DNA of 64,000 nucleotides from an uncultured Bacteroidales bacterium (lineage in GTDB: Bacteria > Bacteroidota > Bacteroidia > Bacteroidales > FEN-979), in assembly GCA_903877385.1 (NCBI GenBank), contig CAIRDP010000061.1:44566-108565 (forward strand), read 5' to 3'. The position numbers and the translations under genes are program-made. The notes under the pieces are model-generated. The model searched no databases and was not told the origin of the DNA. It was given only the letters and a program-made list of their open reading frames with translations. Positions 42,915 to 63,302 of the stretch are shown here, in pieces. The stretch's first letter is position 1. The number at the start of each line of letters is the position of its first letter.

Positions 42915-43002
42915 GTTAACAGTTTTAGAAAAGTATTCAAAGGCTTGCAAAAGTAAGAATTTTCCGTAAATTTGATACACCATCAACGTATTCCGAACCT
43001 CT

Positions 43003-44064
43003 ATGTTATTTAATCTTAACGAACTTATCTTCTTCTCGTCATTTCTTGTGTTCATCGTGGTGTTGCTGCTGATCGATCTCGGGGTTTTTCAGAAGAACTC
43101 CCATGTGCTGACCTTCAGGGAGTCGCTTAACTGGACCCTGGTTTGGGTGATAATATCCCTTTTGTTTTATATCCTGATTCGCTTTCACGGGAACTGGATC
43201 CACGGACTGGATTCCTTATCGGCCATCCAGGACCGCATCACCAGGTTTCACCATCCCATTACCATAAAAGGCCTCAGCCTGGAGGATGCCATCAGCCGTT
43301 ATAATAAAAACCTTTCACTGGAATATCTTACGGGTTACCTGATTGAATATTCCCTGTCGGTGGATAACGTTTTCGTGATCATCCTGATATTCATTTCCTT
43401 TAAGATCAGGCCGAAGTATTACAAGCGGGTATTGTTCTGGGGCATACTCGGCGCCATCGTCATGAGGTTCCTTTTCATTTTTATTTCAGCCGTCCTTATC
43501 CAGAGATTCGCATGGTTCCTGTATATTTTTGGCGTCATGCTGGTCATTATAGGGATTAAAATGGGATGGGAGTTTTTATCCGACAAAAAAGAAGAGAAAA
43601 TCGATACGGAACACCACCCTGTGGTCGGCTTCATGTCGAAGTATTTCAGGGTGACAAAAGAAGATCATGAAGAGAAATTCTGGGTGAGCAGGAGCGGCAA
43701 AATCTATTTCACTCCCCTGTTCATCGTATTGCTGATCATTGAGTTCTCGGATGTGCTTTTTGCCGTTGATTCAGTTCCTGCCGTTTTCTCGGTCACCCTT
43801 GATCCTTACATCGTTTTTTTCTCGAATATTTTCGCTATCCTTGGATTACGTTCCCTGTTTTTCCTGGTCATGGATGTGATGAACCGCTTCCATTACCTTA
43901 AACTCGGGCTTGCCTTCCTCTTAAGTTTCGTGGGAGTGAAAATGCTGCTTTCGTATTTCTATAAACTCAGCACGAATCATTCCCTTCTGATTATAGCTTC
44001 CATACTTGCCATAAGCGTAATTGCCTCCTTGATACGTTCGGTCGTCATAAAAAAATCAACATGA
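43003..44064 (+). CDS. TerC-family integral membrane protein
   Basis: 353 aa and polytopic. TerC motifs EYSLSVDNVFVI and EFSDVLFAVDSVPAVF. Confidence 0.9.
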   Translation: MLFNLNELIFFSSFLVFIVVLLLIDLGVFQKNSHVLTFRESLNWTLVWVIISLLFYILIRFHGNWIHGLDSLSAIQDRITRFHHPITIKGLSLEDAISRYNKNLSLEYLTGYLIEYSLSVDNVFVIILIFISFKIRPKYYKRVLFWGILGAIVMRFLFIFISAVLIQRFAWFLYIFGVMLVIIGIKMGWEFLSDKKEEKIDTEHHPVVGFMSKYFRVTKEDHEEKFWVSRSGKIYFTPLFIVLLIIEFSDVLFAVDSVPAVFSVTLDPYIVFFSNIFAILGLRSLFFLVMDVMNRFHYLKLGLAFLLSFVGVKMLLSYFYKLSTNHSLLIIASILAISVIASLIRSVVIKKST

Positions 44065-47000
44065 ATACAAGCCCCTCCGGTAAAATGAAAAAACTGATTT
44101 TTTCACCCAAAAAGAGCCTGGGCGCCCGGCTGCTGATGTGGTTTTTTTCGGTCTCGGTTTTACCGCTACTTATCATCATTGCCATAGGGTTGCCATTTAC
44201 CAACAGGACCTCGCGGCAGGTGGCGATAAACACCCTGACCTTTTCGTACAACCAGAAGTATGAACAGCTGAGTAGCTATTACCGGGAACTGGTGCAGCAT
44301 ACTATTGTGCAGTCACGGCTTGATTTCACCCTGCCTTTGATAAAGCAGATTACCGGTGAATGCTTAAAATCGGGCAAACCCATCCAGGCTTTCATCCGTA
44401 CCGAAGAGTACAGGAATATTATCAATCCGGTTGAAGCGGTATTCACTAAAATATCAAAGGAGGGAGAAATTTCTGATGTTTTATTATTGAATGCTGATGG
44501 CCTTATCGTTTTTTCGATGAATAAGGGGAGCGAGCTTGGGCGGAATATCAGCGAGGATGGCCTGAAGACTTCGGTATTTGGCCAGGCCTTTCAGAAAGTT
44601 AAAAATGAAAAGGATGTCAGGCTTTCCGAGATCGGCTCTTACGAAACGAATAAACGGCCCTGTTTTTTCCTGATAAACCCCCTCAGTGAATCCGGTTCGG
44701 TTCAGGGATACATGGCTTTCAGGATTTCCACTGAAGCCATCGAAAGCATCCTTGCTTCCGAAAACAAGTTGGGAACTTCGGCTGTGGCATACATTCTCAA
44801 CCAGGATATGAAGATCCTTGCTACCAGTGATCCTGATGACCCGAAGTATTCCGTCTTCAAACAAATTTCCAACAAGGAAGCCGAAAAGCAGTTTGCACAT
44901 ACGGGATCGGGCAAAGCCGGCAGTAATACCAGCGGGTACACGGTTGAATCATACCAGGATGCATACGGGAATGATGTTTTCGGCAGCTGCATACCCTTAT
45001 CGGGACTGGCGAAATACGGGCAGAACTACGTGTTTGTGCAGGAGATCGGTACAAATGAGGCCAAGGGGGCCAATGTGCAGATCATTATCGTAATGATGAG
45101 CCTTGTCATAATTATACTTGTCCTGGTGGTCATCTCGGTACTTTATCTTGCGAGGCGTATAGTAAAACCCATCAACCAGCTGTCGGTATGGGCGGGTTCA
45201 ATTGCCGAAGGGGACCTTGCTTATATGGATATTCAAACAACTGAAGATGAAATAGGACAGGTAAATTCAAGTTTCCGCAGGGTTGTTGAATCTTACCGCG
45301 AGATCGCCGATGTGGCAGGTTCGATGGCGGTGGGGGATTTTGAACACAAGGTTGTGGAAAAGGGTCCTAAAGACCGCCTGGGCAAGTCGGTGAACGAGAT
45401 GCTCGAAAGTTTCAAGTCGGTGATCGAGCAGGCCACCCGTATTTCAAACGGAGATTATTCAAGCGAGATCCAGCCAAGGGGCGAGAAGGACAGCCTGGGA
45501 AAAGCCCTGCAGGTGATGACCAGGACCCTGCGTGAGAATTCCGAGGCAATGAGCTCCCAGGACTGGCTAAAATCGGGCATGGCGGAACTCAGCATGAAGT
45601 TAAGCGGGGATAAACCCAGCCAGGAACTGACCCGAGAACTTATCACCTTCCTGGTGAAATATCTTGATGCCCAGCTTGGATTGTTTTACCTGGCCGATGA
45701 TAAGGAAGACCTCACTCTTACGGCCACTTACGCTTTCAACGACCGTAAAGGGAATTTCAGCAGCCTGAAATCCGGCGAAGGGCTGGTTGGACAGGCAGCG
45801 CTTGAAAAAGAGATCATTGTTTTCAGGGATGTACAGGAAAATGCACCTGCCCTGAATTACGGGGTGGATGAAAAGATCCCGTCGCACTTTATCATAGCCC
45901 CCCTGGTTCATGACAGGCAGCTTGCAGGTGTGATCCAGATAGGGAAGCTTGAAGCTTTCACACCCCTCCAGCGTAAATTCATTGAACAGGTGCTCGATCC
46001 TTCGTCCATCTCCCTCATTACTTCCACTTCAAGGGCCAAGGTTAAACAGCTTCTTGAGCAGACCCAGCAGCAGGCCGAGAGGCTGCAGGTTCAGCAGGAA
46101 GAACTCAGGCAGACCAACGAGGAACTCGAAGAACAAACGAAGGCGCTCAGGAGTTCCGAAGAAGCTTTGCAGGCCCAGCAGGAGGAGTTGCGTGTTATCA
46201 ATGAAGAACTCCAGGAAAGGACCAAGGCGCTGGAAGACCAGAGAGACGACATCCGCACAAAAAACACTGAACTCACCAGGGCAAGGAACCAAATCGAAGA
46301 GAAGGCAAAGGACCTTGAGGTTGCGAGCAAATACAAATCGGAGTTCCTGGCCAATATGTCGCACGAACTGCGTACCCCTCTGAACAGCATCATAGTGCTT
46401 TCCCAGCTGTTATCGGAGAACAAGAAGCAGAACCTTACCGAAAAGCAGATCGAGTATGCCAGCACTATCAACAGTTCGGGAAGCGATCTTTTGGACCTGA
46501 TCAACGAGATCCTCGACCTGAGCAAGATCGAAGCCGGGCGCATTGAGCTTCATCCCGAAACCGTTGACCTGAAAGAGATACTGAACCAGATGGAACTTTT
46601 CTTCAAACCAATGGTTGAGAAGAAAGGCCTGAATTTCAGTTTGAATATTGATGAGCAGGTACCTGAAAAAGTATTTCTGGATAACCAGAGACTTCAGCAG
46701 ATACTGAAGAACCTGCTTTCAAACGCGCTTAAATTCACCGAAAAAGGTGCCGTAAGGCTGGATGTAAGGAGGCCTTTGGATCTGCCGCAAACGGGCCTGG
46801 CGGGGCTTAATCCTGAAACTTCCCTGGCATTTACCGTGAGTGATACAGGGATAGGAATACCCAGGGACAAGCTTAAGATCATCTTTGAAGCCTTCCAGCA
46901 GGCCGATGGTACGACCAGCCGGAGGTTCGGGGGTACGGGGCTGGGGCTTACAATCTCACGTTCCTTTGCCCAGGTGATGGGAGGGGATATACAGTTGCTG

Positions 47001-48362
47001 AGCGAAGAAGGAAAAGGTTCGATGTTTACACTTCTTCTTCCCGAAAAATACGAGGAAACTGTTAAAAAGCCCGAAGCTGTTAAACCCCCAAAGAAGGATG
47101 TTGTTGCCGCTGAACCCAAACCTGTCGTGGCCAGGGCCATGGCGAATGAAAATCCTGCCCATGACCACAGAGAGATCATACAGAAGGGCGATAAGGTGCT
47201 GCTGATCATTGAAGATGATCCTTCCTTTGCCAGGATACTGTTCGACCTTGCCGAGGAGAAAGGGTATAAATGCCTGAGTGCAAGGGACGGGGAAAGCGGG
47301 TTATACCTGGCCGACCTGCATGTCCCCAGCGCTATCATACTCGACATTGGCCTGCCGGGCATAGACGGCTGGGAAGTTATGGAAAGATTGCACCAGGATG
47401 CTAAAACAAGGCATATCCCGGTACACTTTATCTCGGCCATGGACAAGTCGAGGGAAGCAATGCAACTGGGAGCCATAGGCTATTTGACAAAACCGGTCAG
47501 TATTGAGAAGCTCAGGGATGCCTTTGGGCGTATCGAGGATGTCATCTCCAAACCTATGAAAAAACTCCTGGTTGTTGATGACGATGCTGTAACCCGAAAA
47601 AGCATTGTAGGCCTTATCGGCAACGGGGATGTTACTACAAGCCCGGTGAGCAGCGGGGCTGAGGCTTATACCCTTCTTGAGAAGGAAAATTTCGATTGCA
47701 TGATCCTTGACCTTGGGCTTGAAGATATGAGCGGGTTTGATCTCATCGAAAAGATCCGGTCCAATAACAGGCTTGCCGGCCTGCCAATCATTATTTATAC
47801 GGGCAAGGACCTCAGCAGGGAAGAAGAAGACAGGCTGCAGAAGTATGCCGACAGCATCATCATCAAGGGGATACGTTCTCCTGAACGCCTGCTGGCCGAG
47901 ACCTCGCTTTTCCTTCACAGGGTGGAAGCCAATCTGCCTAAGGAAAAGCAGGAAATGATCAGGATGCTGTACAACCAGGAGGATGTTTTTCATGACCGCA
48001 CTATCCTCGTTGTAGACGATGATTCACGCAATGTTTTCGCGATCACTTCGGTGCTTGAGGAACGCGGGCTGAATGTCATTTCGGCGGGGAACGGGCGGGA
48101 AGGCATCGACAGGCTCAAGGCACACCCCGAAATAAGCCTGGTGCTGATGGATGTGATGATGCCCGAAATGGACGGGTATGAAGCTATCGGGATCATCAGG
48201 AAAATACCCAGATACGAACATCTGCCCATCATAGCGCTCACTGCAAAGGCGATGAAGGAGGACAGGGACAATTGCATTGAGGCAGGAGCCAATGATTACC
48301 TTGCCAAACCGGTCGACAGTCAAAAGCTGTTATCTTTGTTAAGGGTTTGGCTGTATAAATAG
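44061..48362 (+). CDS. Hybrid sensor histidine kinase: 2 TM + extracytoplasmic sensor domain, HAMP-like x3, GAF, long coiled coil, HisKA/HATPase_c, three receiver domains
   Basis: TM1 about residues 24-46, TM2 IIIVMMSLVIIILVLVVISVLYL. GD[LFY] HAMP-like segments. GAF segment (GEGLVGQAALEKEIIVF). H-box SEFLANMSHELRTPLN. G-boxes DTGIGI and GGTGLGLTIS. REC signatures (LIIEDD..ILDIGLPGIDG; LVVDDD..ILDLGLEDMSG; LVVDDD..LMDVMMPEMDG..TAKA). The ATGA start overlaps the terC stop. Confidence 0.9.
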   Translation: MNTSPSGKMKKLIFSPKKSLGARLLMWFFSVSVLPLLIIIAIGLPFTNRTSRQVAINTLTFSYNQKYEQLSSYYRELVQHTIVQSRLDFTLPLIKQITGECLKSGKPIQAFIRTEEYRNIINPVEAVFTKISKEGEISDVLLLNADGLIVFSMNKGSELGRNISEDGLKTSVFGQAFQKVKNEKDVRLSEIGSYETNKRPCFFLINPLSESGSVQGYMAFRISTEAIESILASENKLGTSAVAYILNQDMKILATSDPDDPKYSVFKQISNKEAEKQFAHTGSGKAGSNTSGYTVESYQDAYGNDVFGSCIPLSGLAKYGQNYVFVQEIGTNEAKGANVQIIIVMMSLVIIILVLVVISVLYLARRIVKPINQLSVWAGSIAEGDLAYMDIQTTEDEIGQVNSSFRRVVESYREIADVAGSMAVGDFEHKVVEKGPKDRLGKSVNEMLESFKSVIEQATRISNGDYSSEIQPRGEKDSLGKALQVMTRTLRENSEAMSSQDWLKSGMAELSMKLSGDKPSQELTRELITFLVKYLDAQLGLFYLADDKEDLTLTATYAFNDRKGNFSSLKSGEGLVGQAALEKEIIVFRDVQENAPALNYGVDEKIPSHFIIAPLVHDRQLAGVIQIGKLEAFTPLQRKFIEQVLDPSSISLITSTSRAKVKQLLEQTQQQAERLQVQQEELRQTNEELEEQTKALRSSEEALQAQQEELRVINEELQERTKALEDQRDDIRTKNTELTRARNQIEEKAKDLEVASKYKSEFLANMSHELRTPLNSIIVLSQLLSENKKQNLTEKQIEYASTINSSGSDLLDLINEILDLSKIEAGRIELHPETVDLKEILNQMELFFKPMVEKKGLNFSLNIDEQVPEKVFLDNQRLQQILKNLLSNALKFTEKGAVRLDVRRPLDLPQTGLAGLNPETSLAFTVSDTGIGIPRDKLKIIFEAFQQADGTTSRRFGGTGLGLTISRSFAQVMGGDIQLLSEEGKGSMFTLLLPEKYEETVKKPEAVKPPKKDVVAAEPKPVVARAMANENPAHDHREIIQKGDKVLLIIEDDPSFARILFDLAEEKGYKCLSARDGESGLYLADLHVPSAIILDIGLPGIDGWEVMERLHQDAKTRHIPVHFISAMDKSREAMQLGAIGYLTKPVSIEKLRDAFGRIEDVISKPMKKLLVVDDDAVTRKSIVGLIGNGDVTTSPVSSGAEAYTLLEKENFDCMILDLGLEDMSGFDLIEKIRSNNRLAGLPIIIYTGKDLSREEEDRLQKYADSIIIKGIRSPERLLAETSLFLHRVEANLPKEKQEMIRMLYNQEDVFHDRTILVVDDDSRNVFAITSVLEERGLNVISAGNGREGIDRLKAHPEISLVLMDVMMPEMDGYEAIGIIRKIPRYEHLPIIALTAKAMKEDRDNCIEAGANDYLAKPVDSQKLLSLLRVWLYK

Positions 48363-48365
48363 AAT

Positions 48366-49211
48366 ATGAAGAAGTCGCAGGAAGAGTTGCTCGAAAACCA
48401 GGATATCGAGATCAGGTTACTGATCCAGGCGATCTATGACAAGTACGGCTACGACTTCCGCAATTATTCCCAGGCCCATATCAAGCGAAGGATACTCAAC
48501 CGCTTCATGCTGTCGGGGATGAGCTCGGTCTCCCAAATGATTCATGAATGTTTGGTCAATCATAAATTCGTGGATCAGATACTGATGGACCTTTCGATCA
48601 ATGTGACCGAGATGTTCAGGGATCCTGCATTTTATAAGGCCATCCGTGAACATGTTGTACCCGTGCTGAAGACCTATCCCTTTATCAAGATCTGGCATGC
48701 GGGCTGTTCAAGCGGGGAGGAAGTGTATTCCATGGCCATACTGCTGAAGGAAGAAGGCTTGTACGCGAGGACCCAGATCTATGCAACCGATTTTAACCCG
48801 GTGATCATCAAACAGGCTAAGGAAGGGATTTACCCTATAAGCCGGATGAAGGAATTTACTGTGAATTACCAGAGGGCAGGGGGCAAAGCTTCGTTCTCGG
48901 ATTATTATACGGCGAATTACGAATCGGCCAAATTGCTTGATTCGTTTAAGAAGAACATTGTTTTTGCCACACACAACCTGGTCACTGATTCGGTGTTTGC
49001 CGAAGTGCATATGGTCGTTTGCCGTAATGTGCTGATTTATTTTGACCGTGCTCTTCAGGATAAGGTATTAGGCCTCTTCTCCGATTCCCTCACAGGCGGC
49101 GGCGTTCTCTGTTTGGGATCAAAAGAAAACCTGCAGTTTTCGGGATATTACAATAACTTTGACGGACTGGTGTCGGGTGAGAGGATTTATATTAAAAGGT
49201 ACCATGTATGA
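48366..49211 (+). CDS. cheR: CheR-type protein-glutamate O-methyltransferase
   Basis: MFRDPAFY, IWHAGCSSGEEVYSMAILL (SAM-binding motif), CRNVLIYF. Confidence 0.9.
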   Translation: MKKSQEELLENQDIEIRLLIQAIYDKYGYDFRNYSQAHIKRRILNRFMLSGMSSVSQMIHECLVNHKFVDQILMDLSINVTEMFRDPAFYKAIREHVVPVLKTYPFIKIWHAGCSSGEEVYSMAILLKEEGLYARTQIYATDFNPVIIKQAKEGIYPISRMKEFTVNYQRAGGKASFSDYYTANYESAKLLDSFKKNIVFATHNLVTDSVFAEVHMVVCRNVLIYFDRALQDKVLGLFSDSLTGGGVLCLGSKENLQFSGYYNNFDGLVSGERIYIKRYHV

Positions 49212-49777
49212 CCCCTGCAAAGAAATATAAAGCTGTTGTTTTAGGTTCATCTGCAGGCGGGCTTAATGCCCTTAAAACCCTTTTAAGGAACCTTAACAGG
49301 GACTTCAGGTTACCGGTAATTATTGTACAACATATAAGTCCTGATTCGGAGAATTACCTCATTCATATCCTGAACGACCTGAAACGCCTGAAGGTGAAAG
49401 AAGCAGATGAAAAGGAGCACCCCCAGCCGGGGCATGCTTATGTGGCCCCTCCCAATTATCATCTGCTTTTGGAACCTGACCAAACCTTCACCCTTACCGT
49501 GGATGAACGGGTGAATTATGCAAGGCCTTCCATTGATGTGTTATTCGAGACTGCCGCTGAGGCCTACCGCGAACATCTCATCGGCATCATTCTTACCGGG
49601 GCCAATAATGACGGCAGCCGGGGCCTTAAAAGGATAAAGGAGCTGGGTGGGATGGCCATAGTTCAGGACCCTGAAACCGCCGAAGTGGATTCCATGCCTA
49701 AAGCTGCTATCCAGGCCTGTGCTGTTGATCATATCCTTTCGCTGGAAGAAATTTCGGCATTGTTGAATACCCTTTAA
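49208..49777 (+). CDS. cheB: CheB-type protein-glutamate methylesterase, catalytic domain only (no receiver domain)
   Basis: 189 aa. VVLGSSAGGLNAL (nucleophile Ser), VQHISPD (His), LTGANNDGSRGL (Asp). The ATGA start overlaps the cheR stop. Confidence 0.85.
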   Translation: MTPAKKYKAVVLGSSAGGLNALKTLLRNLNRDFRLPVIIVQHISPDSENYLIHILNDLKRLKVKEADEKEHPQPGHAYVAPPNYHLLLEPDQTFTLTVDERVNYARPSIDVLFETAAEAYREHLIGIILTGANNDGSRGLKRIKELGGMAIVQDPETAEVDSMPKAAIQACAVDHILSLEEISALLNTL

Positions 49778-49801
49778 TTTGAATTTCAGAAACGATTACC
49801 T

Positions 49802-51394
49802 ATGAATCTCAAACCAAAAATTCTTATTGTCGATGACAATGTGAGCAATATCCTGGTGATCGAAGAGATCCTTTCAGACCTGGATGTGGAACTCGTGAGA
49901 GCCAGGTCGGGGCTGGAGGCTATTGAAAAAACAAAGCAGCATGAATTCGCGCTCATTCTTATGGATGTGCAGATGCCGGGAATGGACGGTTTTGAAGCCG
50001 TGGAGATCATCCGCCAGGATATTAAAAATTTCTTATTGCCTATAATTTACATCACGGCCATCTACAATGAAAATTATTACAGGACCAAGGGGATCAAGAC
50101 CGGAGCCGTGGATTTTATCGCCAAACCCATTATCCCCGACCTGTTTATCGGGAAAGTCACGTTGTTTGTAAACCTTTACAAACAGAGGATTTCGCTCGAG
50201 CAGGAGGTCGAGAAAAGAAAAGAAGCCGAGGAGGAAATGAAACTGGCCAGGGACCAGGCGAGGGAAGCAGCCCATGCGAAACAGCTTTTTCTTTCGACCA
50301 TGAGCCACGAAATACGGACTCCCCTCAATGCCATTGTTAATACGGCTAAACTGCTTAAAGAAGAAAACCCGAGGGCCGACCAGATCGAAGACCTTGAGAT
50401 CCTGGAGTTTTCGGCCGAAAACCTTCTGCACCTCATCAATGACATCCTTGATTTTTCGAAGATCGATGCAGGCAAGATAGAGTTTGAAGCCATTGAATTT
50501 GAGATCAGGAAACTCATGAACGGCATCCATCAGAGTTTTGAGTACCAGGCAACGATGAAGAACATTGCCTTGGAGTTTATTGTAGGCCAGGACGTTCCCG
50601 ATGTGATTATCGGCGATTCCGCTCGTTTGTCGCAGATAATGATAAACCTTATCGGGAATGCCATCAAGTTTACCGACAAAGGGAAGGTTATTGTTGAAAC
50701 TGTTCTCCTGGCTTCAAAAGGCAAGGAACTTGAACTTGTGATGAGGGTTTCCGATACGGGGATCGGTATTCCGGAGGATAAAATTCAATTCGTATTCGAG
50801 AGCTTTACGCAGGCATCCTCATCCACTACCCGCAAATACGGAGGCACGGGACTTGGGCTTGCCATCACCCGCAAACTGGTTTCGATGCAGGGAGGCTCAA
50901 TCGATGTGAAGAGCAAGGTGGGGGCGGGAAGTGTTTTTTCGGTGACTTTGCCCTTTATCCGCAGTGAAAAAGACCACCTGGAAGAGGATATGCTCATGAG
51001 AGCGAGTTTTCAGAGCCTTGCCGGTTTAAGGGTTCTGGTGGTTGAGGACAATCTCGTAAACCAGAAGATTGTATCAAAGTTTCTTATGAAATGGGATGTG
51101 AATGTGGATGTCGCTGAGAACGGGCTCATAGCCGTTGAGAAGGCAAGTCATAATATCTACGACCTGGTTCTTATGGACCTGCACATGCCCGAGATGAACG
51201 GTTACGATGCCACTCTTGCAATCAGGAAGATGGAAGGAAACCCCAACAAGGATATGCCTATCATTGCTTTGACCGCATCGGCTTTCATTGAGGACCGCGA
51301 GAAAATTTATACTTACGGCATGAGCGGATACATCATAAAACCTTTCAATCCTTCGGAATTATACTGGAAGATAGCGCCGTTTATAAAAAAATAG
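49802..51394 (+). CDS. Hybrid histidine kinase REC-coiled coil-HisKA-HATPase_c-REC
   Basis: N-terminal REC ([20 protein letters not shown]), H-box [31 protein letters not shown]-terminal REC ([23 protein letters not shown]). Confidence 0.9.
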
Positions 51395-52878: not shown

Positions 52879-52951
52879 CTCTCCGTAGCTCAGCTGGTAG
52901 AGCAATTGACTCTTAATCAATGGGTCACAGGTTCGAATCCTGTCGGGGAGA
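52879..52951 (+). tRNA. tRNA-Lys (anticodon CTT)
   Basis: 73 nt folded by hand as a cloverleaf. Acceptor CTCTCCG/CGGGGAG (one G-U pair), D arm GCTC-AGCTGGTA-GAGC, anticodon arm ATTGA-CTCTTAA-TCAAT, T arm ACAGG-TTCGAAT-CCTGT, discriminator A. No encoded CCA. Confidence 0.9.
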
Positions 52952-52960
52952 CAGAAAATC

Positions 52961-52994
52961 AACCACTTACAAAGACAAAGTAAGTGGTTTTTTT
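52961..52994 (+). terminator. Rho-independent terminator after tRNA-Lys
   Basis: AACCACTTAC-aaagacaaa-GTAAGTGGTT (10-bp perfect stem) running into a T7 tract. Confidence 0.8.
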
Positions 52995-53196
52995 AATTAG
53001 TACACACAAAAGTACACACCAATCAAGATTTGCTTTAGGGCGATCCTTACTTTATGTTTCTCATCTTTATTCATTTTCAGGTTTTGCACAAGGTTCGTAA
53101 TAATGGGATCTGAATTATTGAATTGCTCTTTTCCCAAGAGGGAAAATTTCCCTGCAGGTTTTGTTACCCGCTAACATTCAGTTCATTTATTTTCAT

Positions 53197-53215
53197 TGTT
53201 CATTTTCAATGAACA
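53197..53215. promoter_or_regulatory. 19-bp palindromic operator candidate, distal copy
   Basis: TGTTCATT-TTC-AATGAACA. It is the exact reverse complement of the copy at 53327-53345. Confidence 0.6.
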
Positions 53216-53316
53216 TAATGTATTGATGAACAAAATATTAAATAACGATCACATATTTAATGAACTGGGGCTATGAAATTTTTTTCAAGATTTATTTGTT
53301 TTTATAAAATGTTCAC

Positions 53317-53324
53317 TATATTTG
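53317..53324 (+). promoter_or_regulatory. Candidate -7 promoter box (TAnnTTTG) of the AbiE-like cassette
   Basis: TATATTTG, 2 nt upstream of the proximal palindrome and 45 nt upstream of the ATG at 53370. Confidence 0.5.
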
Positions 53325-53326
53325 CT

Positions 53327-53345
53327 TGTTCATTGAAAATGAACA
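53327..53345. promoter_or_regulatory. 19-bp palindromic operator candidate, proximal copy (overlaps the predicted transcription start)
   Basis: TGTTCATT-GAA-AATGAACA. At least five extra GTTCA/TGAAC half-sites lie within 53180-53365. Confidence 0.6.
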
Positions 53346-53369
53346 AAGGAATTAAGTGAACGAATAGCC

Positions 53370-54365
53370 ATGAGAAACGATAAAGAAATACTTACCGAAG
53401 CTGTGAACAGCCTGTATAAGTACACTAAAATAGAGGCAACTATTGAAGATGGAAGATTACGATACGATGCCTATCTGAATATTGCCGGAGCACGGTTTGT
53501 GGTTGAGGTCAAATCTGAAATCACTAAGGGAAATAAGGGTATCGTTCTCGCGGACCTGAAAAATATCTCCCTAAAAAATAACCTTCCTATCCTATTGGTT
53601 ACAAAATACATTCCCAGAGATATTGCGAAGGAATATGTGGAGGAAGGAATAAATTGCCTTGATGTTGCGGGTAATTGCAACATAAGACAGAACAAGCTTT
53701 TGCTACTAATTGAGGGGAAAAAGATTGAACGAATGGCCAGAGTAAACCAACCCCGTGCTTTTCAGGAAGCGGGTATCAAGCTACTCTTCCAATTTCTGAT
53801 TGATCCTGAAAAAACTCAACTTCCTTACCGCGACTTGGCAGGACTTGCCAATATTTCTTTAGGATCTGTCGGGATGATCATGCAGGAATTGATGGATCTC
53901 AACTTTATTCTTAAAACGAAGCAGACCAAAAAGTTGAAAAATACCAAAGACTTACTCAATCGCTGGATAACGGCTTACCACGATGTATTGAGGCCACGTT
54001 TACTAAAAAAGCAGATGCGATTTATTAACCAGGATTATTATAATCGTTGGAAAGATATAGTTCTTGACAAAATCAACGGCACTGTCTATTGGGGTGGCGA
54101 GCCTGCTGCGAACTTGCTCACTGGCTACTTGCACCCGGGTACTTTTACCATATATACTGATCAGAACTGGCAAAGTTTCAAAGAGATTGAGCTTGTTCCC
54201 GATGAAACCGGTAAGGTTGAAGTGCTTGAAATGTTCTGGAAGAAGCAATCTTATAACGGGGTGCCTCCTGTCCTGGTATATGCGGACTTGATGAGCAGCG
54301 GAAGGGACCGGAATACTGAAACCGCAAAATTAATCTTAGATAATGAGCTACAATATATCAAGTGA
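53370..54365 (+). CDS. AbiEi-like wHTH protein (putative type IV antitoxin/regulator) with N-terminal PD-(D/E)xK-like domain
   Basis: 331 aa. N-terminal D33...E46-V-K48 (RYDAYLNIAGARFVVEVKSE), then ILLVTKYIPRDIAKEYVEEGINCLDVAGN, resembling the Mrr-cat/restriction-endonuclease fold. Central wHTH-like segment (LPYRDLAGLANISLGSVGMIMQELMDLNFI). C-terminal tail (VLVYADLMSSGRDRNTETAKLI) resembles AbiEi C-termini. Overlaps the downstream NTase gene by 23 nt. Confidence 0.55.
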   Translation: MRNDKEILTEAVNSLYKYTKIEATIEDGRLRYDAYLNIAGARFVVEVKSEITKGNKGIVLADLKNISLKNNLPILLVTKYIPRDIAKEYVEEGINCLDVAGNCNIRQNKLLLLIEGKKIERMARVNQPRAFQEAGIKLLFQFLIDPEKTQLPYRDLAGLANISLGSVGMIMQELMDLNFILKTKQTKKLKNTKDLLNRWITAYHDVLRPRLLKKQMRFINQDYYNRWKDIVLDKINGTVYWGGEPAANLLTGYLHPGTFTIYTDQNWQSFKEIELVPDETGKVEVLEMFWKKQSYNGVPPVLVYADLMSSGRDRNTETAKLILDNELQYIK

Positions 54366-55191
54366 TCGATTGAGCAATCCATTGTTGAAAGAATTGCTGC
54401 AGGCTCTTACTGTCTTTTTTGAATCGGTGGGTTCCGAATTTTACGTCATTGGTGCCACTGCCCGAGACATCATTCTGTCAGGTATTCATGCCCAGCATTC
54501 CGGGAGGAAAACTGTTGATCTTGATATAGCAATTGCAATCCCTGATTGGAATAGGTATCAAGAAATTTCCGACCGTCTATGCCATGAAGAGGGTTTTACT
54601 AAATCAACGGAGCAAAAACAACGGTTTTTGTATAAAGCAGTCTACATGCTCGATATCGTTCCATTCGGAGATGTCGCTAAAGAAGATAAGTACATTTACT
54701 GGCCACCTGAAGAATCCTTTGCTATGCCGGTTCATGGCTTTGTTGAAGTGTCAAAAGATGCTCTTGAGGTCACGGTGGATAATGAATTGACGATCCGGGT
54801 TGCTTCTTTACCGGGAATTTTCATTCTAAAATTGATTGCTTGGTACGACAGGCACCTTGAACACGACAGGGATGCAGAGGACATGGCTTTTATAATCTCC
54901 AATTACTTGTCACTAAACGACGAAAGGTCGGCCCGAGATCATTATGATATTTATGATCGAACTCCTTTCTCTAATTTCATTGCTGGAGCTACACTGATAG
55001 CTCGGGATATAATCACTGTGATCAAGGACGATTTATCAGTCCGGGAAAGGTTAGTAACCATTCTTCGGGAAGAAATTAATAAAACACTTGACAGCCCTCT
55101 GATCAATCAAATGCTTGAAACCCACCAACCGCTTAAATACGAGGAAGTATACGATGCATTGTTTTCAATGACCAACGAATTAACTAAATAG
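54343..55191 (+). CDS. Pol-beta-fold nucleotidyltransferase, AbiEii/DUF1814-like (putative toxin/effector)
   Basis: 282 aa. NTase signature G37-A...D59-L-D61 (VIGATARD...RKTVDLDIAI). Third acidic residue D104 (YMLDIVPFG). KLIAWYDR....DAEDMAFI resembles AbiEii motif III. Confidence 0.6.
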   Translation: MSYNISSDRLSNPLLKELLQALTVFFESVGSEFYVIGATARDIILSGIHAQHSGRKTVDLDIAIAIPDWNRYQEISDRLCHEEGFTKSTEQKQRFLYKAVYMLDIVPFGDVAKEDKYIYWPPEESFAMPVHGFVEVSKDALEVTVDNELTIRVASLPGIFILKLIAWYDRHLEHDRDAEDMAFIISNYLSLNDERSARDHYDIYDRTPFSNFIAGATLIARDIITVIKDDLSVRERLVTILREEINKTLDSPLINQMLETHQPLKYEEVYDALFSMTNELTK

Positions 55192-55452
55192 AATATGGCA
55201 GAAACTGAAGAAACCAACGAAGAAATTGTAGTTGAAGATAACCAGGTGATCTGTGTGGACGGGCCGGCGCTATTGAATGATGGTCGCCGATCTTAGGGTT
55301 TATATTCTCAGTTAGAGAATTGCCCCTGAAATTCTTTAAGACGGTCAATTAAAGATTCTTGAACAGCAATTTTCTTCTGCCAAAATGATGGTAACTGCGG
55401 TGGGAACCATAGTGGATATGATCATTCCCGTTTAAGTTTCACCCGCGGTCGC

Positions 55453-56319
55453 TCATTGCTTCACCAGCTCTACCCGGCGGTTCAGGGCGCGGCCTTCTTC
55501 TGTATCGTTTGTAGCCATGGGGGCAGTAGGTCCATCGCCCCAGGCTTTCAGGCGGGAAGCTGCCAGCCCGTAATTTTTAACCAATGCATTCACGATGGCC
55601 ATGGCCCGGTCCTGGGAAAGTTTCATGTTTGCATCAAATATCCCTGTGTTATCGGTATGGCCTACTACGTAAAGCCTTAGAGACGGCTCAATTTTCAGCA
55701 ATTTCGCAATTTCGTCCAGAGCCGGTTTTGATTCGGCTTTGACATCCGCCTTCCCGGTATCGAAATAAATGCCATAAAGGGCGGCTTTACCGGTTTCCCT
55801 TATGCTTTTATCCATGGTGCTTGCATCAGCAACGACATCCTGCTTCATAACCTGCTTCTCAACCAGGTGAATGGAATAGGAACCGTTGCCGTTGGCCGAA
55901 ATATAGGCCCAGGTCTCCATGCCGTTCTTTGCAACCTTCACCACCACGTCTTCGCCCGGGTCATGCCATTCGTACACAAGCTGACCGCCGACCGATTTGG
56001 CTGCATTGATGTAATTGCGGCCGATCTGCAGCGGGCTGGGGGCCTGGACATTATCATTGAGGTCATAAATTATGAACAGGTGATGCCCTTCCACAACCTG
56101 GGTTTTATTGCTGCTGATTTTGAATTCATACTGATCAAACTGCAGGTCATCATACCGGTATATATGATAACCGTTCATGCGGGTGAACAATGCCGGATCT
56201 TTGCTGCCTTCTGCGTCATTCTGTGAGAAGGAGGAAATGGCCGGCAGGATAAAAATCCAACACAGAATAAAGACCAAAGAAAGCCGCTTTAAGTTTTTTC
56301 TCTTTTTCTTCATGATCAT
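55453..56319 (-). CDS. OmpA-family protein (C-terminal peptidoglycan-binding OmpA domain)
   Basis: Signal peptide. C-terminus LYVVGHTDNTG....N..LSQDRA.A....L....G.......A.G.G...P.A.N.TEEGRA.NRRVELV. Confidence 0.9.
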   Translation of the reverse strand: MIMKKKRKNLKRLSLVFILCWIFILPAISSFSQNDAEGSKDPALFTRMNGYHIYRYDDLQFDQYEFKISSNKTQVVEGHHLFIIYDLNDNVQAPSPLQIGRNYINAAKSVGGQLVYEWHDPGEDVVVKVAKNGMETWAYISANGNGSYSIHLVEKQVMKQDVVADASTMDKSIRETGKAALYGIYFDTGKADVKAESKPALDEIAKLLKIEPSLRLYVVGHTDNTGIFDANMKLSQDRAMAIVNALVKNYGLAASRLKAWGDGPTAPMATNDTEEGRALNRRVELVKQ

Positions 56320-56358
56320 ACGTTTTAATAAAAAAAAGGACTCTGTTCAATAAGAGAT

Positions 56359-57177
56359 CTATTTCCCAAACAATCTCATAAGGAATGCCTTCATATCATT
56401 CCATGATGCCTTATCAGCTTCAGCATTATATTCAATAGGCAGGTTGAACTCCTTCCCCAGCCTGCTTGCATCAGGATTTGTAAAGGCATGGGTTGCATTG
56501 GGGTAGGTTTTAAAAGTATAATCAGCGTGGATTGAATCCATCTGGTGTTTGAAGGTATCCACATCATGCTGGGTAACCGATTTGTCGCTGCCCCCATGGC
56601 AAATGAGTATTTTTGCTTTTAATGACTGCCTGTTTACAGGCAACCCGCCAAGGCCGCCATGGAAACTCACGATCCCTTTAAAATCTGCTCCCAGTTTGGC
56701 ATAATTAAGGACCATGGATCCTCCAAAACAATAACCTATGGCGGCAATATTCCCTGTATCTGCCCGGGAATATTCCCTGATCTTTTTGACAGCAGCATCA
56801 AGCCTGGTTTTTGCCAGGCCCGGATCATTGTAATACGGTGCTGTAAGTTCCCTGGCTTCCTGTGGATTGGAGGCAGTCTTGCCGCTTCCGAACATATCCA
56901 CTGCCATGGCCAGATAGCCAAGTGAGGCAAGCTGCCTCGTCCTCATTTTGGCATAATCATTCAGACCCCACCACTCATGGACCACAAAAACGACCGGCAG
57001 TTTTCCTTTAATAGCCTCATCATAGGCGATAAAACCAATGAGATTGACTCCGTTGGCTGTATAATTTACAGTTTCTTCTTTGATTTTTGATGTCATGGTT
57101 TTAGAATATGTGATCAGGATGATTGCGAAAATAAAAGTGCCGAGAAGGATTGAGATTTTAAGAAATTTTGATTTCAT
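56359..57177 (-). CDS. Dienelactone hydrolase-family alpha/beta hydrolase, secreted
   Basis: Signal peptide. HEWWGLNDY, nucleophile elbow IGYCFGG, and the HAF His region. Confidence 0.85.
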   Translation of the reverse strand: MKSKFLKISILLGTFIFAIILITYSKTMTSKIKEETVNYTANGVNLIGFIAYDEAIKGKLPVVFVVHEWWGLNDYAKMRTRQLASLGYLAMAVDMFGSGKTASNPQEARELTAPYYNDPGLAKTRLDAAVKKIREYSRADTGNIAAIGYCFGGSMVLNYAKLGADFKGIVSFHGGLGGLPVNRQSLKAKILICHGGSDKSVTQHDVDTFKHQMDSIHADYTFKTYPNATHAFTNPDASRLGKEFNLPIEYNAEADKASWNDMKAFLMRLFGK

Positions 57178-57618
57178 TTTTCAGAAAATTACATCTTTTG
57201 CAAAGTTACATAAATGTGAGCTTGACTAATGAACTTTGCTGATCCAACAAGATGCAAGGCGGGGCCTATGCTCCCCAGTTCAGTTCGTTGACTGCGGATT
57301 TGCTCAGTTGATCCGTTTTGTGCACTATCCCTGAATACGATGTGTTTCCTGGTTATCTCTCTCAGTTTCCTTTAACGAATGGAGGTTCTTTAATAATTCT
57401 GATATTATTTAATCCTGGGAAAGTGAAAGGCTTTTTAAAAATACTTTGGTAACCTATAAGGATTTCATAAATTTGATGTTATTATAGTTTGATAAAGAAA
57501 GAACAAACGGAAGAAGGAAGTATAGAATTTAAAAAAATCGCGTTTAGCTGAATTCCTTGTTGAAACCGATCAAAATTCATTATTTCCACAGTACAATAAA
57601 ATCGGACAAAGAGTTTGT

Positions 57619-58020
57619 ATGAAGAACCCGACAATAATAAGTCTCCCAAAATTTGAAAATCCACGGGGAAACCTCACTTTCATAGAGGAGGATACACATT
57701 TGCCATTTAAGATAAAGCGAGTATACTGGATTTACGATGTTCCCGGCGGTCAAAGCCGCGGCGGACATGCTTTTAAAGAACAGCAGGAACTTATTGTGGC
57801 TCTTTCCGGCAGTTTTGATATAGTAGTGGACAATGGAATTCAAAAACAAGTCTTTTCACTCAACCGTTCTTATTTTGGGCTTTATATTCCTAACGGATTA
57901 TGGCGCGAAATGAACAACTTCTCAACTAATGCCCTGGCTTTGGTAATAAGCTCAACTGAATTTTCAAAAGATGATTATATCAGGGAATACTCAAACTACA
58001 TTGAATACATACAACGATGA
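57619..58020 (+). CDS. FdtA/QdtA/WxcM-C-like cupin (dTDP-4-keto-6-deoxyhexose 3,4-ketoisomerase family), variant HAF motif
   Basis: 133 aa. PKFENPRGNLTFIEE..LPFKIKRVYWIYDVPGGQSRGGHAFKEQQELIVALSGSF. Confidence 0.75.
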   Translation: MKNPTIISLPKFENPRGNLTFIEEDTHLPFKIKRVYWIYDVPGGQSRGGHAFKEQQELIVALSGSFDIVVDNGIQKQVFSLNRSYFGLYIPNGLWREMNNFSTNALALVISSTEFSKDDYIREYSNYIEYIQR

Positions 58021-58433
58021 AAGGCAATTCAGTTTTTGACTGTTCCGTAATAGAATTACCCCGGATCATATACCGTGCCGGCAATATTACACCGGTAAGC
58101 AATAACGAAAGTATTCCCTTTGAAGTTAAACGGGTATTTTATATTTATGATATTCCAGGGGGAGAAGACCGGGGAGCTCATGCCCATAAACAGTGTTATC
58201 AGTTTTTAGTTGCAGCCAGCGGGGGTTTTGAAATAGAAATCGATGATGGGATAATAAAACGTACAGTTACTTTAAACCGGCCATATTTTGGGCTTCTTAT
58301 TCCTCCGGGAATTTGGGCAGCCCAGAAAAACTTTTCTTCCGGTTCCGTCTGTCTTGTTTTAACATCCCAGAAATACGATGAAGATGATTACATAAGAAAT
58401 TACGATGATTACTTATTATACCGAAAAAAATGA
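58017..58433 (+). CDS. FdtA/QdtA-like 3,4-ketoisomerase, canonical HAH motif
   Basis: 138 aa. IPFEVKRVFYIYDIPGGEDRGAHAHKQCYQFLVAASGGF. ATGA overlap with the upstream paralogue. Confidence 0.8.
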   Translation: MKGNSVFDCSVIELPRIIYRAGNITPVSNNESIPFEVKRVFYIYDIPGGEDRGAHAHKQCYQFLVAASGGFEIEIDDGIIKRTVTLNRPYFGLLIPPGIWAAQKNFSSGSVCLVLTSQKYDEDDYIRNYDDYLLYRKK

Positions 58434-58984
58434 TTCATCCGACCTCTGAAGTACAAACAACAAATATTGGGGAAAATACCACTGTCTGGCAATTTTGTGT
58501 AATCCTGAAGAATGCCAGAATCGGCAGCAACTGCAATATTAATTTTAGTGTGTTTATAGAAAATGATGTTGTCATAGGCAATAATGTTACCGTGAAATCC
58601 GGAGTACAGCTCTGGGACGGCATCCGGGTCGAGAATGATGTATTTATTGGCCCCAATGCCACATTTGTAAATAATCCATATGTCCGTTCGAAGCATTATC
58701 CCGGGAAACACATAGGCGCAACAATTAGAAAAGGGGCTTCCATTGGTGCCAATTCTACCATTATGGGGGATATCACAATAGGTGAATATGCATTTATCGG
58801 GGCAGGGAGCGTAGTAACTAAAAATGTACCGCCTTACCAGGTTTGGTATGGAAATCCAGCCGCCCATAAAGGATATGTAACACCGGGAGGTGAAGTACTT
58901 GGGCTTGATTTATTGTCTAAGGTTACGAACAAAAAATATGATTACATAGATCAACAATTAATTGAGAATGATCAAATTTCTTGA
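58430..58984 (+). CDS. Left-handed beta-helix (hexapeptide) N-acetyltransferase, FdtC/QdtC/WxcM-N-like
   Basis: 184 aa with repeated [LIV]-G-x4 hexapeptides (IGENTTV, IGSNCNI, IGNNVTV, IGPNATF, IGANSTI, IGAGSVV). ATGA overlap with the upstream gene. Confidence 0.8.
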
Positions 58985-60089
58985 CATAAAAGCGATTAAT
59001 GACAGTTTCGAACCTGATTTGTCAAGTTCCATCCGGCGTGTTCTAGGTTCCGGATGGTATTTGCTCGGGAACGAAGTGAACACGTTTGAACAGGAGTATG
59101 CAGGTTTTATCGGTACGAAACATTGCATTGGTGTGGCTAATGGATTGGATGCTTTGCGGTTGATCTTTAAGGCATATATCGAAATGGGGGAAATGCATGA
59201 AGGTGATGAAATTATCGTACCTGCCAATACTTATATTGCTTCCATTCTCGCCATATCGGATAACCGTTTGCAGCCCGTTTTGGTTGAACCTGATATTACG
59301 ACATACAACATTGATCCCTTTCAGATTGAAGAAAAGATAACCGAACGTACCCGTGGAATAATGATTGTTCATTTGTACGGTCAAAATGCGATGCATCCCG
59401 AAATCCAGCGTTTAATTTCTAAATACAATCTGAAATTAATTGAAGATAATGCTCAGGCCTCCGGTGCATCATTCGGAGATAAACGCACAGGGGCTTTAGG
59501 CCATGCCTCGGGAAACAGTTTTTATCCCAGCAAAAACCTGGGCGCATTGGGTGATGCAGGAGCCGTTACTACTGACGATGACGAGTTGGCTGCCGTAATA
59601 CGGGCTATGGCTAATTATGGTTCATCAAAGAAGTATATTAATGATTATAAAGGACTTAACTCACGCCTTGACGAAATTCAGGCAGCTGTACTAAGCTCCA
59701 AACTGCCTCGCCTCGATAAAGACAACCAAGGTCGCAGGGAAATTGCAAAATACTATATCGATAACATTACTCATCCCGGTATTATTTTACCTTCGCTAAA
59801 AACTGATAGCTTAGCTTTCAAAACAAAAGAACATGTGTGGCACCTGTTTGTCATCCGTCATGCAAACAGGAATGAACTGCAAAAATATTTAAGTGAAAAC
59901 GGGATACAAACAATGATACATTATCCCATCCCACCTCACAAACAAAAAGCTTACAAGGAGTGGAATAATCATCATTATCCTGTTTGTGAACAGATCCACA
60001 ACGAGGTGTTAAGCCTCCCCATTAGTCCGGTCCTGGGAGATGAAGAGGTAATGAGTATAACAAGAACATTAAATAATTTTGAACATTGA
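58962..60089 (+). CDS. DegT/DnrJ/EryC1-family PLP-dependent sugar aminotransferase (FdtB/QdtB-like)
   Basis: [27 protein letters not shown], and the [17 protein letters not shown] block containing the PLP lysine. An alternative start lies at 58968. Confidence 0.9.
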
Positions 60090-60148
60090 TTTAGTTTTCA
60101 CCCTTAAACCTGATATCGGCACAAAAATTCTTTAATTAATATGTAATC

Positions 60149-61600: not shown

Positions 61601-61657
61601 ATTCAGGCAGGTGTACCGGGATTCCGTATTTTATTATTTAATCTTTAAACCATAATA

Positions 61658-62596: not shown

Positions 62597-62723
62597 ATCA
62601 GCTCTATGCTGAAGGAAATAGAGCTGATTGATCATTTAGGGCGCATTTCCCATTTCAGGTAAAACCTTTAACAAAACGCATTTTGAAAATTATAAATCAG
62701 TAAATACCATTAAAACCGACATT

Positions 62724-63245
62724 ATGAAAACAAGACTCAGGAAAATCTATCTGCTCGCAGCCATTTCGGCCATGATTTTAGCAGGATGCAATAAAGAAGG
62801 GCCCCAGGGACCGGCCGGGAATAACGGGCTTAACGCCACGGTCTATTATTCCGAATGGTTTACTCCCGCTGCCTGGTCGGGTAATTCGGGCGACTGGTAT
62901 TTCGCGGCCAATGCTCCCGACCTGACCCAGGATATTGTCGAGGGAGGAGTTGTGCTGGCCTATGCCTGGCTGGCCGGTGATTTATATGGAAGTACTTCAG
63001 AACGTCCCTTGCCTGCCTATGCGGTAGGCGCTAACTGGAGCTTCCTCATCCACCAGTATGGAAGTATTGAATTCACCACCGATATGTTAGCGCAGCCGGC
63101 CACCATCGGCAATAAGTTCAGGTTTATAGCCATCCCCGGAACCATCCCGGCATCAAAATCAGGAACAATCGGAAACAGGAGTGTTCAGGAACTGAGGAAC
63201 ATGCCGTACAAGGAGGTCTGCAAATTGTACCACATTCCCGAATAG
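62724..63245 (+). CDS. Hypothetical lipoprotein
   Basis: Signal peptide plus lipobox LAGC. A short collagen-like GPQGPAGNNG follows the Cys. Confidence 0.5.
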   Translation: MKTRLRKIYLLAAISAMILAGCNKEGPQGPAGNNGLNATVYYSEWFTPAAWSGNSGDWYFAANAPDLTQDIVEGGVVLAYAWLAGDLYGSTSERPLPAYAVGANWSFLIHQYGSIEFTTDMLAQPATIGNKFRFIAIPGTIPASKSGTIGNRSVQELRNMPYKEVCKLYHIPE

Positions 63246-63269
63246 GGCTGATGGTTTGAAGTAAATGAA

Positions 63270-63302
63270 TTTCAATTGAGCATTTAGGTCGCTCAATTGA
63301 AA
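63270..63302 (+). terminator. Strong hairpin downstream of the lipoprotein gene (terminator candidate, no T-tract)
   Basis: TTTCAATTGAGC-atttaggtc-GCTCAATTGAAA (12-bp perfect stem), 25 nt after the stop. Confidence 0.5.

Follow-up and report, generated by a model that had tools for sequence, protein, structure and literature searches.

Heptad-spaced glutamate pairs on the signaling helix of a CfcA-type histidine kinase, candidate CheR/CheB sites in a Bacteroidales operon

A five-gene operon carried on a 64,000-nucleotide stretch of DNA from an uncultured freshwater Bacteroidales bacterium (GenBank contig CAIRDP010000061.1) places CheR, a methyltransferase, and CheB, a methylesterase, between two hybrid histidine kinases, here HK1 and HK2, behind a gene for a TerC-family membrane protein. 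The window hereafter is that whole stretch, and its positions are used throughout. The HK1-CheR-CheB-HK2 part is very probably a copy of a widespread, self-contained cassette first named, as cfcABCD, in Pseudomonas putida. Which residues would CheR and CheB modify in such a cassette? New here is a set of candidate methylation sites common to CfcA-type kinases and to CheB-CheR fusion kinases, pairs of glutamates repeated by heptads on a kinase coiled coil. That this glutamate-pair array of HK1 is the specific methyl-acceptor is evenly balanced in our judgment, and we lean slightly towards the combined reading of a cfc-type cassette with CheR and CheB acting on the HK1 glutamate pairs.

The five genes lie on the + strand. 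They encode TerC (43003-44064, 353 aa in the open reading frame (ORF) list), the CfcA-type membrane hybrid sensor histidine kinase HK1 (44061-48362, 1433 aa), a CheR-type protein-glutamate O-methyltransferase (48366-49211, 281 aa; CheR_N and CheR in Pfam), a CheB methylesterase/deamidase lacking a receiver (REC) domain (49208-49777, 189 aa; CheB_methylest, E 5.5e-63) and HK2, a REC-HisKA-HATPase-REC protein in Pfam (49802-51394, 530 aa). Domains of the five proteins were called with Pfam and NCBIfam. A preliminary description, made from the sequence alone, had placed these ORFs exactly where they are found, packed on one strand: the junction sequences contain ATGA overlaps of 4 nt between terC and HK1 (44061-44064) and between cheR and cheB (49208-49211), 3 nt separate the HK1 stop from cheR, and 24 nt separate cheB from HK2. 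Its count of two transmitters and five receivers also stands, both H-boxes and all five acceptor aspartates being kept (H768, D1095, D1217 and D1364 in HK1; H169, D55 and D459 in HK2).

HK1 has hydrophobic segments at residues 24-46 and 339-364. Between them lies a dCache-like extracytoplasmic sensor of ~290 residues (residues ~47-338; 44199-45074, + strand), whose match to dCache_1 (28.7 bits, E 1.2e-6) is below the Pfam cut-off; weak dCache_1 matches are also precomputed for HK1 orthologues. The HAMP array that follows (residues 363-505; 45147-45575, + strand) had been described as three HAMP domains; one of them is significant (363-410), whereas the other two are HAMP-like units below threshold, at 17.6 and 15.2 bits. 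The remaining parts, all on the same strand, are a GAF domain (residues 520-646; 45618-45998; GAF_2, E 5.1e-14), a signaling helix (647-787; 45999-46421) predicted to run as one unbroken helix from the end of the GAF domain to the phospho-His helix, the transmitter (46335-47045; HisKA 759-826 with H768 at 46362-46364, and HATPase_c 874-995) and three receivers (47193-48341; Response_reg in three stretches, E 7.5e-69).

The glutamate pairs are located on the signaling helix. The array, LQVQQEELRQTNEELEEQTKALRSSEEALQAQQEELRVINEELQERTKAL, spans HK1 residues 675-724 (46083-46232, + strand) and belongs to a coiled coil whose eleven heptads place Leu or Ile at a single core position, the periodicity extending over residues 682-752. 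Two copies of a 28-residue module, QxQQEELRxxNEELxExTKAL, are present in this coiled coil, and the glutamates are paired once per heptad (QQEEL..NEEL), in register with the phospho-His. The candidate CheR/CheB sites are E680/E681, E687/E688, E708/E709 and E715/E716, together with the flanking Q677/Q678 and Q705/Q706. A single-sequence AlphaFold2 model, which is a monomer with a low predicted template modeling score (pTM), is helical over HK1 647-787 (model residues 14-154), with a mean predicted local distance difference test (pLDDT) value >89 over 664-753.

No other segment of HK1 is as conserved as the coiled coil. Among distant homologues its median identity is 65.7%, compared with 56.5% in the catalytic core, 37.5% in HAMP-GAF and 22.8% in the sensor. 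The array is almost invariant in an alignment of HK1-like kinases from six lineages, and a 15-sequence alignment (A2) has Q11, Q12, E13, E14, L15, N19, E20, E21 and N47, E48, E49, L50 without exception. The register is conserved as well: in 128 of 130 proteins every xEE[LMFI] motif falls in the same heptad register, and the last motif precedes the phospho-His by 26, 33, 47, 54, 61 or 75 residues, a distance equal to 5 modulo 7 in 129 of 130. Lineages short of one heptad are short by exactly seven residues. Within a stretch of 70 residues, 126 of 127 HK1-like proteins have four or more [EQ]E[LIFMV] motifs in register, whereas all 140 other kinases of the same loci have two or fewer; this comparison set was partly selected through the motif, and the subset selected through CheB agrees. 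In alphaproteobacterial cassettes the first module alone is intact. As the sole query of a large protein database, the 102-aa coiled coil returned short fragments only and no architectures. The HK1-like kinases of three Flavobacterium loci (L064 10576-14115, L071 and L072) have an extra 22-residue repeat, ANEELAYQNDEKEKRAxEL, upstream of the array, and one unrelated representative (P0297) shares it.

CheB-CheR fusion kinases offer, judged by their sequences, another setting in which CheR and CheB go together with a heptad array of paired glutamates. A Flavobacterium CheB-CheR-PAS-kinase fusion has YEELQAANEEIVSSNEEFQTLNEELETSKEEIEATNEEL ~190 residues downstream of its CheR domain, and 3-7 xEE[LIF] heptads were found shortly downstream of CheR in 120 of 120 Bacteroidota relatives of this fusion in a large protein database (at least 5 in 118 of them). 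In a diverse sample of 150 representatives with no more than 50% mutual identity, CheR is present in 97 (80 of which also contain CheB); the array occurs in 97/97 of these, with at least 5 heptads in 92. Of the 53 representatives devoid of CheR, 46 have no more than two heptads, and six of the other seven look like fusions cut short at the N-terminus. The conservation of the array, its register and this parallel make the earlier suggestion of a kinase coiled coil as methyl-acceptor a credible one. Two CheR/CheB sets meet in one locus of Flavobacterium glaciei, F. yafengii and Flavobacterium sp. ZS1P14 (L064 16865-20543, L071, L072), where a CheB-CheR-PAS-kinase-REC fusion lies ~6 kb downstream of stand-alone cheR-cheB and an HK1-like kinase.

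Both enzymes of the operon look active, because the CheB triad is invariant and both proteins align to solved structures. CheR aligns to 5FTW and 1AF7 with conservation of the GxSTGEE-type S-adenosylmethionine motif, the Arg of FR(D/E) and the Tyr of CRNVxIYF. In CheB, residues S15, H42 and D135 are invariant in 22 homologues, those of kinase-less loci included, and they line up with the catalytic region in 1CHD and 3SFT. CheB consists of the methylesterase domain only, with no N-terminal receiver in Pfam. The CheR and CheB domains of the fusion kinases are 31-36% and 35-40% identical, respectively, to those of the window, and comparison of the window proteins with these domains and with chemotaxis CheR structures gave no subfamily separation. 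The closest CheB proteins (85-93% identity) come from metagenome-assembled genomes of uncultured freshwater Bacteroidales/Bacteroidota, more distant relatives from Prolixibacteraceae and Draconibacterium, and one search returned >7,900 CheB homologues.

The association of CheR/CheB with hybrid kinases extends far beyond this operon. A scan of CheB alignments, with one genome per species, gave 80 loci, and an HK1-like kinase is located next to cheR-cheB in 41 of them, from Bacteroidales, Flavobacterium, Chitinophagales, Clostridia, Halanaerobiales and Victivallales. Many Bacteroidales have the gene order kinase-kinase-cheR-cheB, whereas it is cheR-cheB-kinase-kinase in Flavobacterium and Chitinophagales and kinase-cheR-cheB-regulator in Clostridia and Halanaerobiales. 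When loci were found through the coiled-coil motif, cheR-cheB lay directly downstream in 45 of 80. The cassette is also annotated on alphaproteobacterial plasmids, those of Rhizorhabdus wittichii (Swit_5353-5356), Sphingobium, Neorhizobium and Rhizobium BG4; ORF and BLAST labeling alone places it on plasmids of Ensifer and Rhizobium WYJ-E13, and in a Novosphingobium locus the same labeling gave a CheR match and no CheB match. Over the GAF, coiled-coil and kinase regions, HK1 is 43-45% identical to its best plasmid-borne homologues (E 1e-88 to 1e-100), among them the kinase of the Rhizorhabdus cassette (44%, 1e-88). The pair thus goes with hybrid kinases rather than with a chemotaxis cluster, as had been proposed, in a self-contained arrangement conserved across phyla.

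The same arrangement has been described in Pseudomonas. The cfcABCDE cluster of Pseudomonas putida has the order cfcA-cheR-cheB-cfcD, and CfcA, a hybrid kinase of the membrane, is described with two transmembrane segments around a periplasmic CHASE domain (TM-CHASE-TM), followed by a GAF domain, a transmitter and three receivers. CfcA activates CfcR, an orphan REC-GGDEF-EAL regulator, in response to salts, in a system tied to cyclic di-GMP (c-di-GMP), and the receiver of CfcD resembles that of CfcR. CfcB and CfcC, the CheR and CheB of this cluster, are described as having no role in chemotaxis. In Pseudomonas alkylphenolica, the bmsA cluster contains a bmsA orthologue, CheR, CheB and a hybrid kinase in the same order (Sci Rep). 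The preliminary description had called such neighborhoods functionally uncharacterized; this is too sweeping in view of the cfcABCDE and bmsA clusters, which match in order and architecture and in which only the role of CheR/CheB is unassigned.

Does the pair need to lie beside its kinase? In the Bacteroidales clade in which terC precedes cheR-cheB, the content between terC and meaB varies from terC-HK1-cheR-cheB-HK2, as in the window, to terC-cheR-cheB-HK2 or terC-cheR-cheB, and 25 loci keep cheR-cheB with no adjoining HK1-like kinase. The metagenome-assembled chromosome OY759717.1 is of the terC-cheR-cheB type. On contig JAEAME010000009.1, one such terC-cheR-cheB operon devoid of kinases (L006, 171-192 kb) is ~105 kb from a locus encoding a REC-kinase and an HK1-like kinase with the glutamate array (L147, 297-318 kb). 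The same unlinked kinase type, of ~1180 aa, is present in ~20 metagenome loci, and an approximate neighbor-joining tree groups these kinases as one derived clade inside those linked to cheR-cheB. Kinase-less operons with an intact CheB triad and a distant kinase indicate that CheR/CheB can sit apart from the kinase, which fits action in trans and makes it plausible.

The gene after cheB gives a clue to the output. REC-GGDEF regulators located after cheB elsewhere have receivers 48-52% identical to the N-terminal one of HK2, which is 25-42% identical to the other four receivers of its own operon. In Clostridia-type copies that gene encodes a REC-GGDEF protein (Pfam E 8e-52 for the one of Clostridium beijerinckii), and in one metagenome locus a REC-PAS-GGDEF-EAL protein. 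The gene after cheB thus keeps one receiver type and swaps its effector, either GGDEF or kinase-receiver, and HK1 probably passes its phosphoryl group to the N-terminal receiver of HK2, a protein in a position like that of CfcD. The module had been called output-less, which is true of this operon but not of other lineages, where the REC-GGDEF or REC-PAS-GGDEF-EAL protein follows cheB. The linker of HK2 was also considered as a CheR/CheB substrate and was rejected, its EAEEE stretch not being conserved in 29 orthologues.

An ordinary function of CheR/CheB would require chemoreceptors. Pfam searches of most large ORFs of the window found no methyl-accepting chemotaxis protein (MCP), CheA, CheW, CheY, histidine phosphotransfer (HPt), helix-turn-helix (HTH) or GGDEF/EAL domain, which bears out, for the ORFs scanned, the earlier claim that MCP, CheA, CheW, stand-alone CheY and any output domain are lacking; MCP, CheA and CheW are also absent from the precomputed Pfam annotation of nine related 20-kb loci. 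It is possible that the pair is the ordinary adaptation module of a canonical MCP/CheA/CheW system elsewhere in the genome, its position between two kinases being incidental. The genome is seen here through 64 kb, CheB proteins with no receiver are also part of genuine chemotaxis systems, for example the F3 class of Campylobacterota, and kinase-less terC-cheR-cheB operons exist. However, neither the window nor the nine loci contain such a system, linkage to an HK1-type kinase recurs in at least five phyla and on conjugative plasmids, and the P. putida counterpart is described as having no chemotaxis role. The host, moreover, has the gliding gene GldH (23067-23534, - strand) and proteins with the C-terminal domain of the type IX secretion system (T9SS), both detected by Pfam in the window as the preliminary description had stated. 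We consider a distant chemotaxis system improbable as the explanation.

Several points weigh against the action of CheR and CheB on HK1 as part of a cfc-type relay. A regular-expression search of the five operon proteins found neither a full MCP methylation consensus nor a C-terminal xWxxF pentapeptide, and literature searches found no report of CheR-dependent kinase methylation. The Streptomyces rimosus homologue retains RQQEELQRSNEELEEK / QQEELQRSNEELEE, with cheR/cheB absent from the ~15-kb loci examined, and a Streptantibioticus homologue has a partly degenerate motif and no cheR/cheB in the fetched locus; a motif partly kept with no cheR/cheB nearby could be a structural feature of the signaling helix of this family. 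(The Azospirillum homologue, also with no cheR/cheB in its fetched locus, is degenerate, with NERL, QQEKL and NEAL.) The fusion proteins are all homologous and thus count as one more lineage of evidence, not as 97 independent events. In P. putida, an unpublished remark has it that mutants in the other cfc genes retain the CfcR-dependent colony phenotype, so that CheR and CheB would be modulators at most; the phenotype would also fit no role at all. The likeness to CfcA is one of gene order and architecture taken from published descriptions, and neither an HPt protein nor the final output was found within the window.

Alternatively, CheR and CheB may modify something besides the HK1 coiled coil, such as a different part of the kinases or a protein encoded at some other place, the array being a structural or docking feature. 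This would suit the partial retention of the motif in the Streptomycetaceae homologues with no cheR/cheB in the fetched loci, the place of the array outside the MCP methylation consensus, and the 25 TerC-clade loci with cheR-cheB and no HK1-like kinase beside them. It accounts less well for an array that is the best-conserved part of HK1, that is absent from the 140 other kinases of the same loci and that has a similar counterpart after every CheR domain in the sampled fusion kinases. Furthermore, conserved EE pairs are lacking from both the linker of HK2 and the loops of TerC, and in a genome with kinase-less terC-cheR-cheB a motif-bearing kinase is encoded elsewhere on the same contig. A substrate other than the HK1 coiled coil is, in our view, unlikely.

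TerC, the first protein of the operon, is by its profile matches an ordinary Alx-type member of its family (PF03741, E 4e-49; TIGR03718, TerC/Alx, 340.8 bits against a cut-off of 246.4, residues 8-345). The preliminary description saw in it a hint to the physiological input or output of the module. On one reading, TerC would be the functional partner, CheR/CheB being tied to TerC-mediated metal or envelope homeostasis and the kinases accessories. At least 33 species-level loci retain the terC-cheR-cheB combination, including loci that lack both kinases, and terC and cheR-cheB share a probable promoter. However, terC is directly upstream in 33 of the 80 species loci plus close relatives, all of them at a single chromosomal site with the arrangement glnA(-) | terC ... 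cheR cheB ... | meaB(-), and outside one Bacteroidales clade terC never adjoins the cassette in the loci compared. The single site and the absence outside the clade indicate that the adjacency arose once and was inherited with its surroundings; it therefore argues for co-transcription and is no independent evidence of shared function. After terC the gaps in these loci range from -29 to +77 nt, 4-nt overlaps being frequent. The cytoplasmic loops have no conserved glutamate pairs (KKEEK and DHEEK are not conserved in 39 orthologues, and TerC was rejected as a methylation substrate), and no yybP-ykoY manganese riboswitch lies upstream of terC, Rfam at gathering thresholds having found only a tRNA in the window. 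A module centered on TerC is thus very improbable: TerC looks like a lineage-specific neighbor, its adjacency inherited rather than functional. Of the five-gene synteny expected earlier, the HK1-CheR-CheB cassette recurs across phyla, whereas the TerC member is confined to one clade.

The operon is flanked by the divergent glnA upstream and the convergent meaB downstream, both on the - strand. The true start of glnA is at ~42914 on the - strand, so that glnA and terC do not overlap. The consensus of the -7 promoter element of Bacteroidota is TAnnTTTG, and a box of this type, TAAATTTG, is present at 42967-42974 on the + strand, ~35 nt before the terC ATG, which leaves a 5' leader of ~28 nt downstream of the box. 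It is the probable promoter of the operon: 36 of 36 distinct TerC-clade loci have a TAnnTTTG match in the 60 nt preceding terC, and in close relatives the box is part of a conserved block, gCAAAAGTAAGAATTTT..TAAnTTTGA. A scan for terminators found none on the + strand with a good T tail within the operon, and a sigma-70 promoter scan gave 17 matches against 11 expected, the sigma-70 model being uninformative for Bacteroidota. A mirror -7 box for glnA, TACTTTTG (42948-42955, - strand), is back to back with TAAATTTG, and the 88-nt spacer between glnA and terC (42915-43002) carries both. A further TAnnTTTG match, TATCTTTG (48331-48338), falls within the last part of HK1, 28 nt ahead of cheR. It might serve as an internal promoter, but ~2 matches of this kind per 8.5 kb are expected by chance, and the number found does not exceed this.

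Elsewhere in the window, a pair of ORFs at 3123-9326 (- strand) was considered, by its size, as a second kinase pair and was rejected, since it encodes T9SS-sorted PKD proteins. ORFs of 652, 618 and 644 aa (10309-12267, - strand; 12369-14225 and 14222-16156, + strand) have no significant Pfam match, the 618-aa ORF having a weak FG-GAP match only, and sit among genes for glycosyltransferases, sulfatases and T9SS cargo. Beyond meaB, gene content differs among relatives. An AbiEi/AbiEii type IV toxin-antitoxin pair (53370-54365, 54343-55191) comes after a tRNA-Lys(CTT) (52879-52952), the GC content drops from ~0.47-0.50 to 0.41-0.45 across the last 12 kb of the window, and the region from 52879 to 64000 may be a tRNA-flanked island.

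How might a cfc-type cassette with methylation of HK1 work? HK1 would sense an extracytoplasmic cue through its dCache-like domain, and the signal would pass by the HAMP units and the GAF domain into the long signaling helix, and from there to the helix of His768. The phosphoryl group would be transferred to the N-terminal receiver of HK2, either directly or via the receivers of HK1 and a separate HPt protein; this receiver would correspond to the one that other phyla have in fusion with GGDEF, and HK2 would relay onward to a downstream output. CheR and the REC-less CheB would serve no chemoreceptors; rather, they would methylate and demethylate the paired glutamates of HK1 and deamidate its glutamines. 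Methylation of exposed glutamate pairs may alter the charge and packing of the helix and so reset kinase output, as a form of adaptation or memory. With a CheB that has no receiver, any feedback would come from conformation-dependent access to the sites, a mechanism that has also been proposed for chemoreceptor adaptation. TerC would be co-transcribed as the first gene only because the cassette lies downstream of terC in this lineage.

The operon itself is an ordinary member of a common, known cassette, and its value lies in the comparative result that names testable sites. To our knowledge, chemoreceptors are the only substrates for which CheR/CheB action has been demonstrated. Among the REC-less CheB proteins sampled, many are encoded beside histidine kinases or form part of them, and they have no assigned target. 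A tentative generalization, which we hold at somewhat under even chances, is that xEE-hydrophobic heptad arrays form a second, non-chemoreceptor class of CheR/CheB substrates, modified in cis in CheB-CheR fusions and in trans when the kinase is of the CfcA type. Ordinary two-component kinases, including those of non-flagellated Bacteroidota, would then commonly have methylation-based adaptation as an add-on, and the terC-cheR-cheB operons would service kinases encoded elsewhere. With named residues on the helix leading to the phospho-His, kinase adaptation by methylation becomes a directly testable question, and CfcA/CfcR of P. putida already offers a c-di-GMP read-out.

Several known systems resemble parts of this one. 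MCP methylation sites are Glu/Gln pairs that recur by heptads along an exposed side of a long coiled coil, and the HK1 array shares with MCP methylation helices such pairs and the control of a histidine kinase; the catalytic residues of CheR and CheB are also conserved in both. Differently to MCP systems, the operon encodes no MCP signaling domain, CheA or CheW and a CheB with no receiver, the helix is parallel and not an antiparallel four-helix hairpin, and both the [ASTG][ASTG]xx[EQ][EQ]xx[ASTG][ASTG] consensus and the pentapeptide are missing. A second relative is the S-helix of sensor kinases and cyclases, a family defined as a coiled-coil linker with conserved register and an E-R-T signature. 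The HK1 linker agrees with this definition, being predicted as an unbroken helix into the phospho-His helix and having a conserved register: like an S-helix it is a continuous coiled coil from sensor to catalytic domain with a register modulo 7 and the signature (QERT, 719-722). Ordinary S-helices, in contrast, have not been reported with repeated invariant glutamate pairs or with a link to CheR/CheB. The Wsp system of Pseudomonas (MCP-CheW-CheR-CheA/Y-CheB-REC-GGDEF) likewise employs CheR/CheB outside motility, with a c-di-GMP output as in many relatives of the cassette, but it has a true MCP, CheW proteins and a CheA-type kinase, whereas the cassette has a classical HisKA kinase and none of these.

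The CheB-CheR fusion kinases, uncharacterized proteins annotated as 'two-component system CheB/CheR fusion protein', also tie CheB and CheR to a histidine kinase in the absence of a chemoreceptor and have a NEEL-type heptad array. In the fusions, enzymes and array are part of one polypeptide and are followed by PAS domains, whereas here the genes are separate and the array lies between the GAF domain and the phospho-His helix; the repeats differ as well (NEELQS/NEELETSKEEL compared with QQEELRxxNEELEEQ here). Finally, the P. putida cfc cluster differs in its sensor, which is CHASE3 there and dCache-like here, and in its setting, the window representing a gliding Bacteroidales host with terC at the operon front and no GGDEF regulator in the window. 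What the operon has in common with the cfc and bmsA clusters is the order of hybrid kinase, cheR, cheB and REC-headed hybrid kinase, the layout of the first kinase (transmembrane segment, periplasmic sensor, transmembrane segment, GAF, kinase and three receivers) and a CheR/CheB pair that appears to serve a purpose other than chemotaxis.

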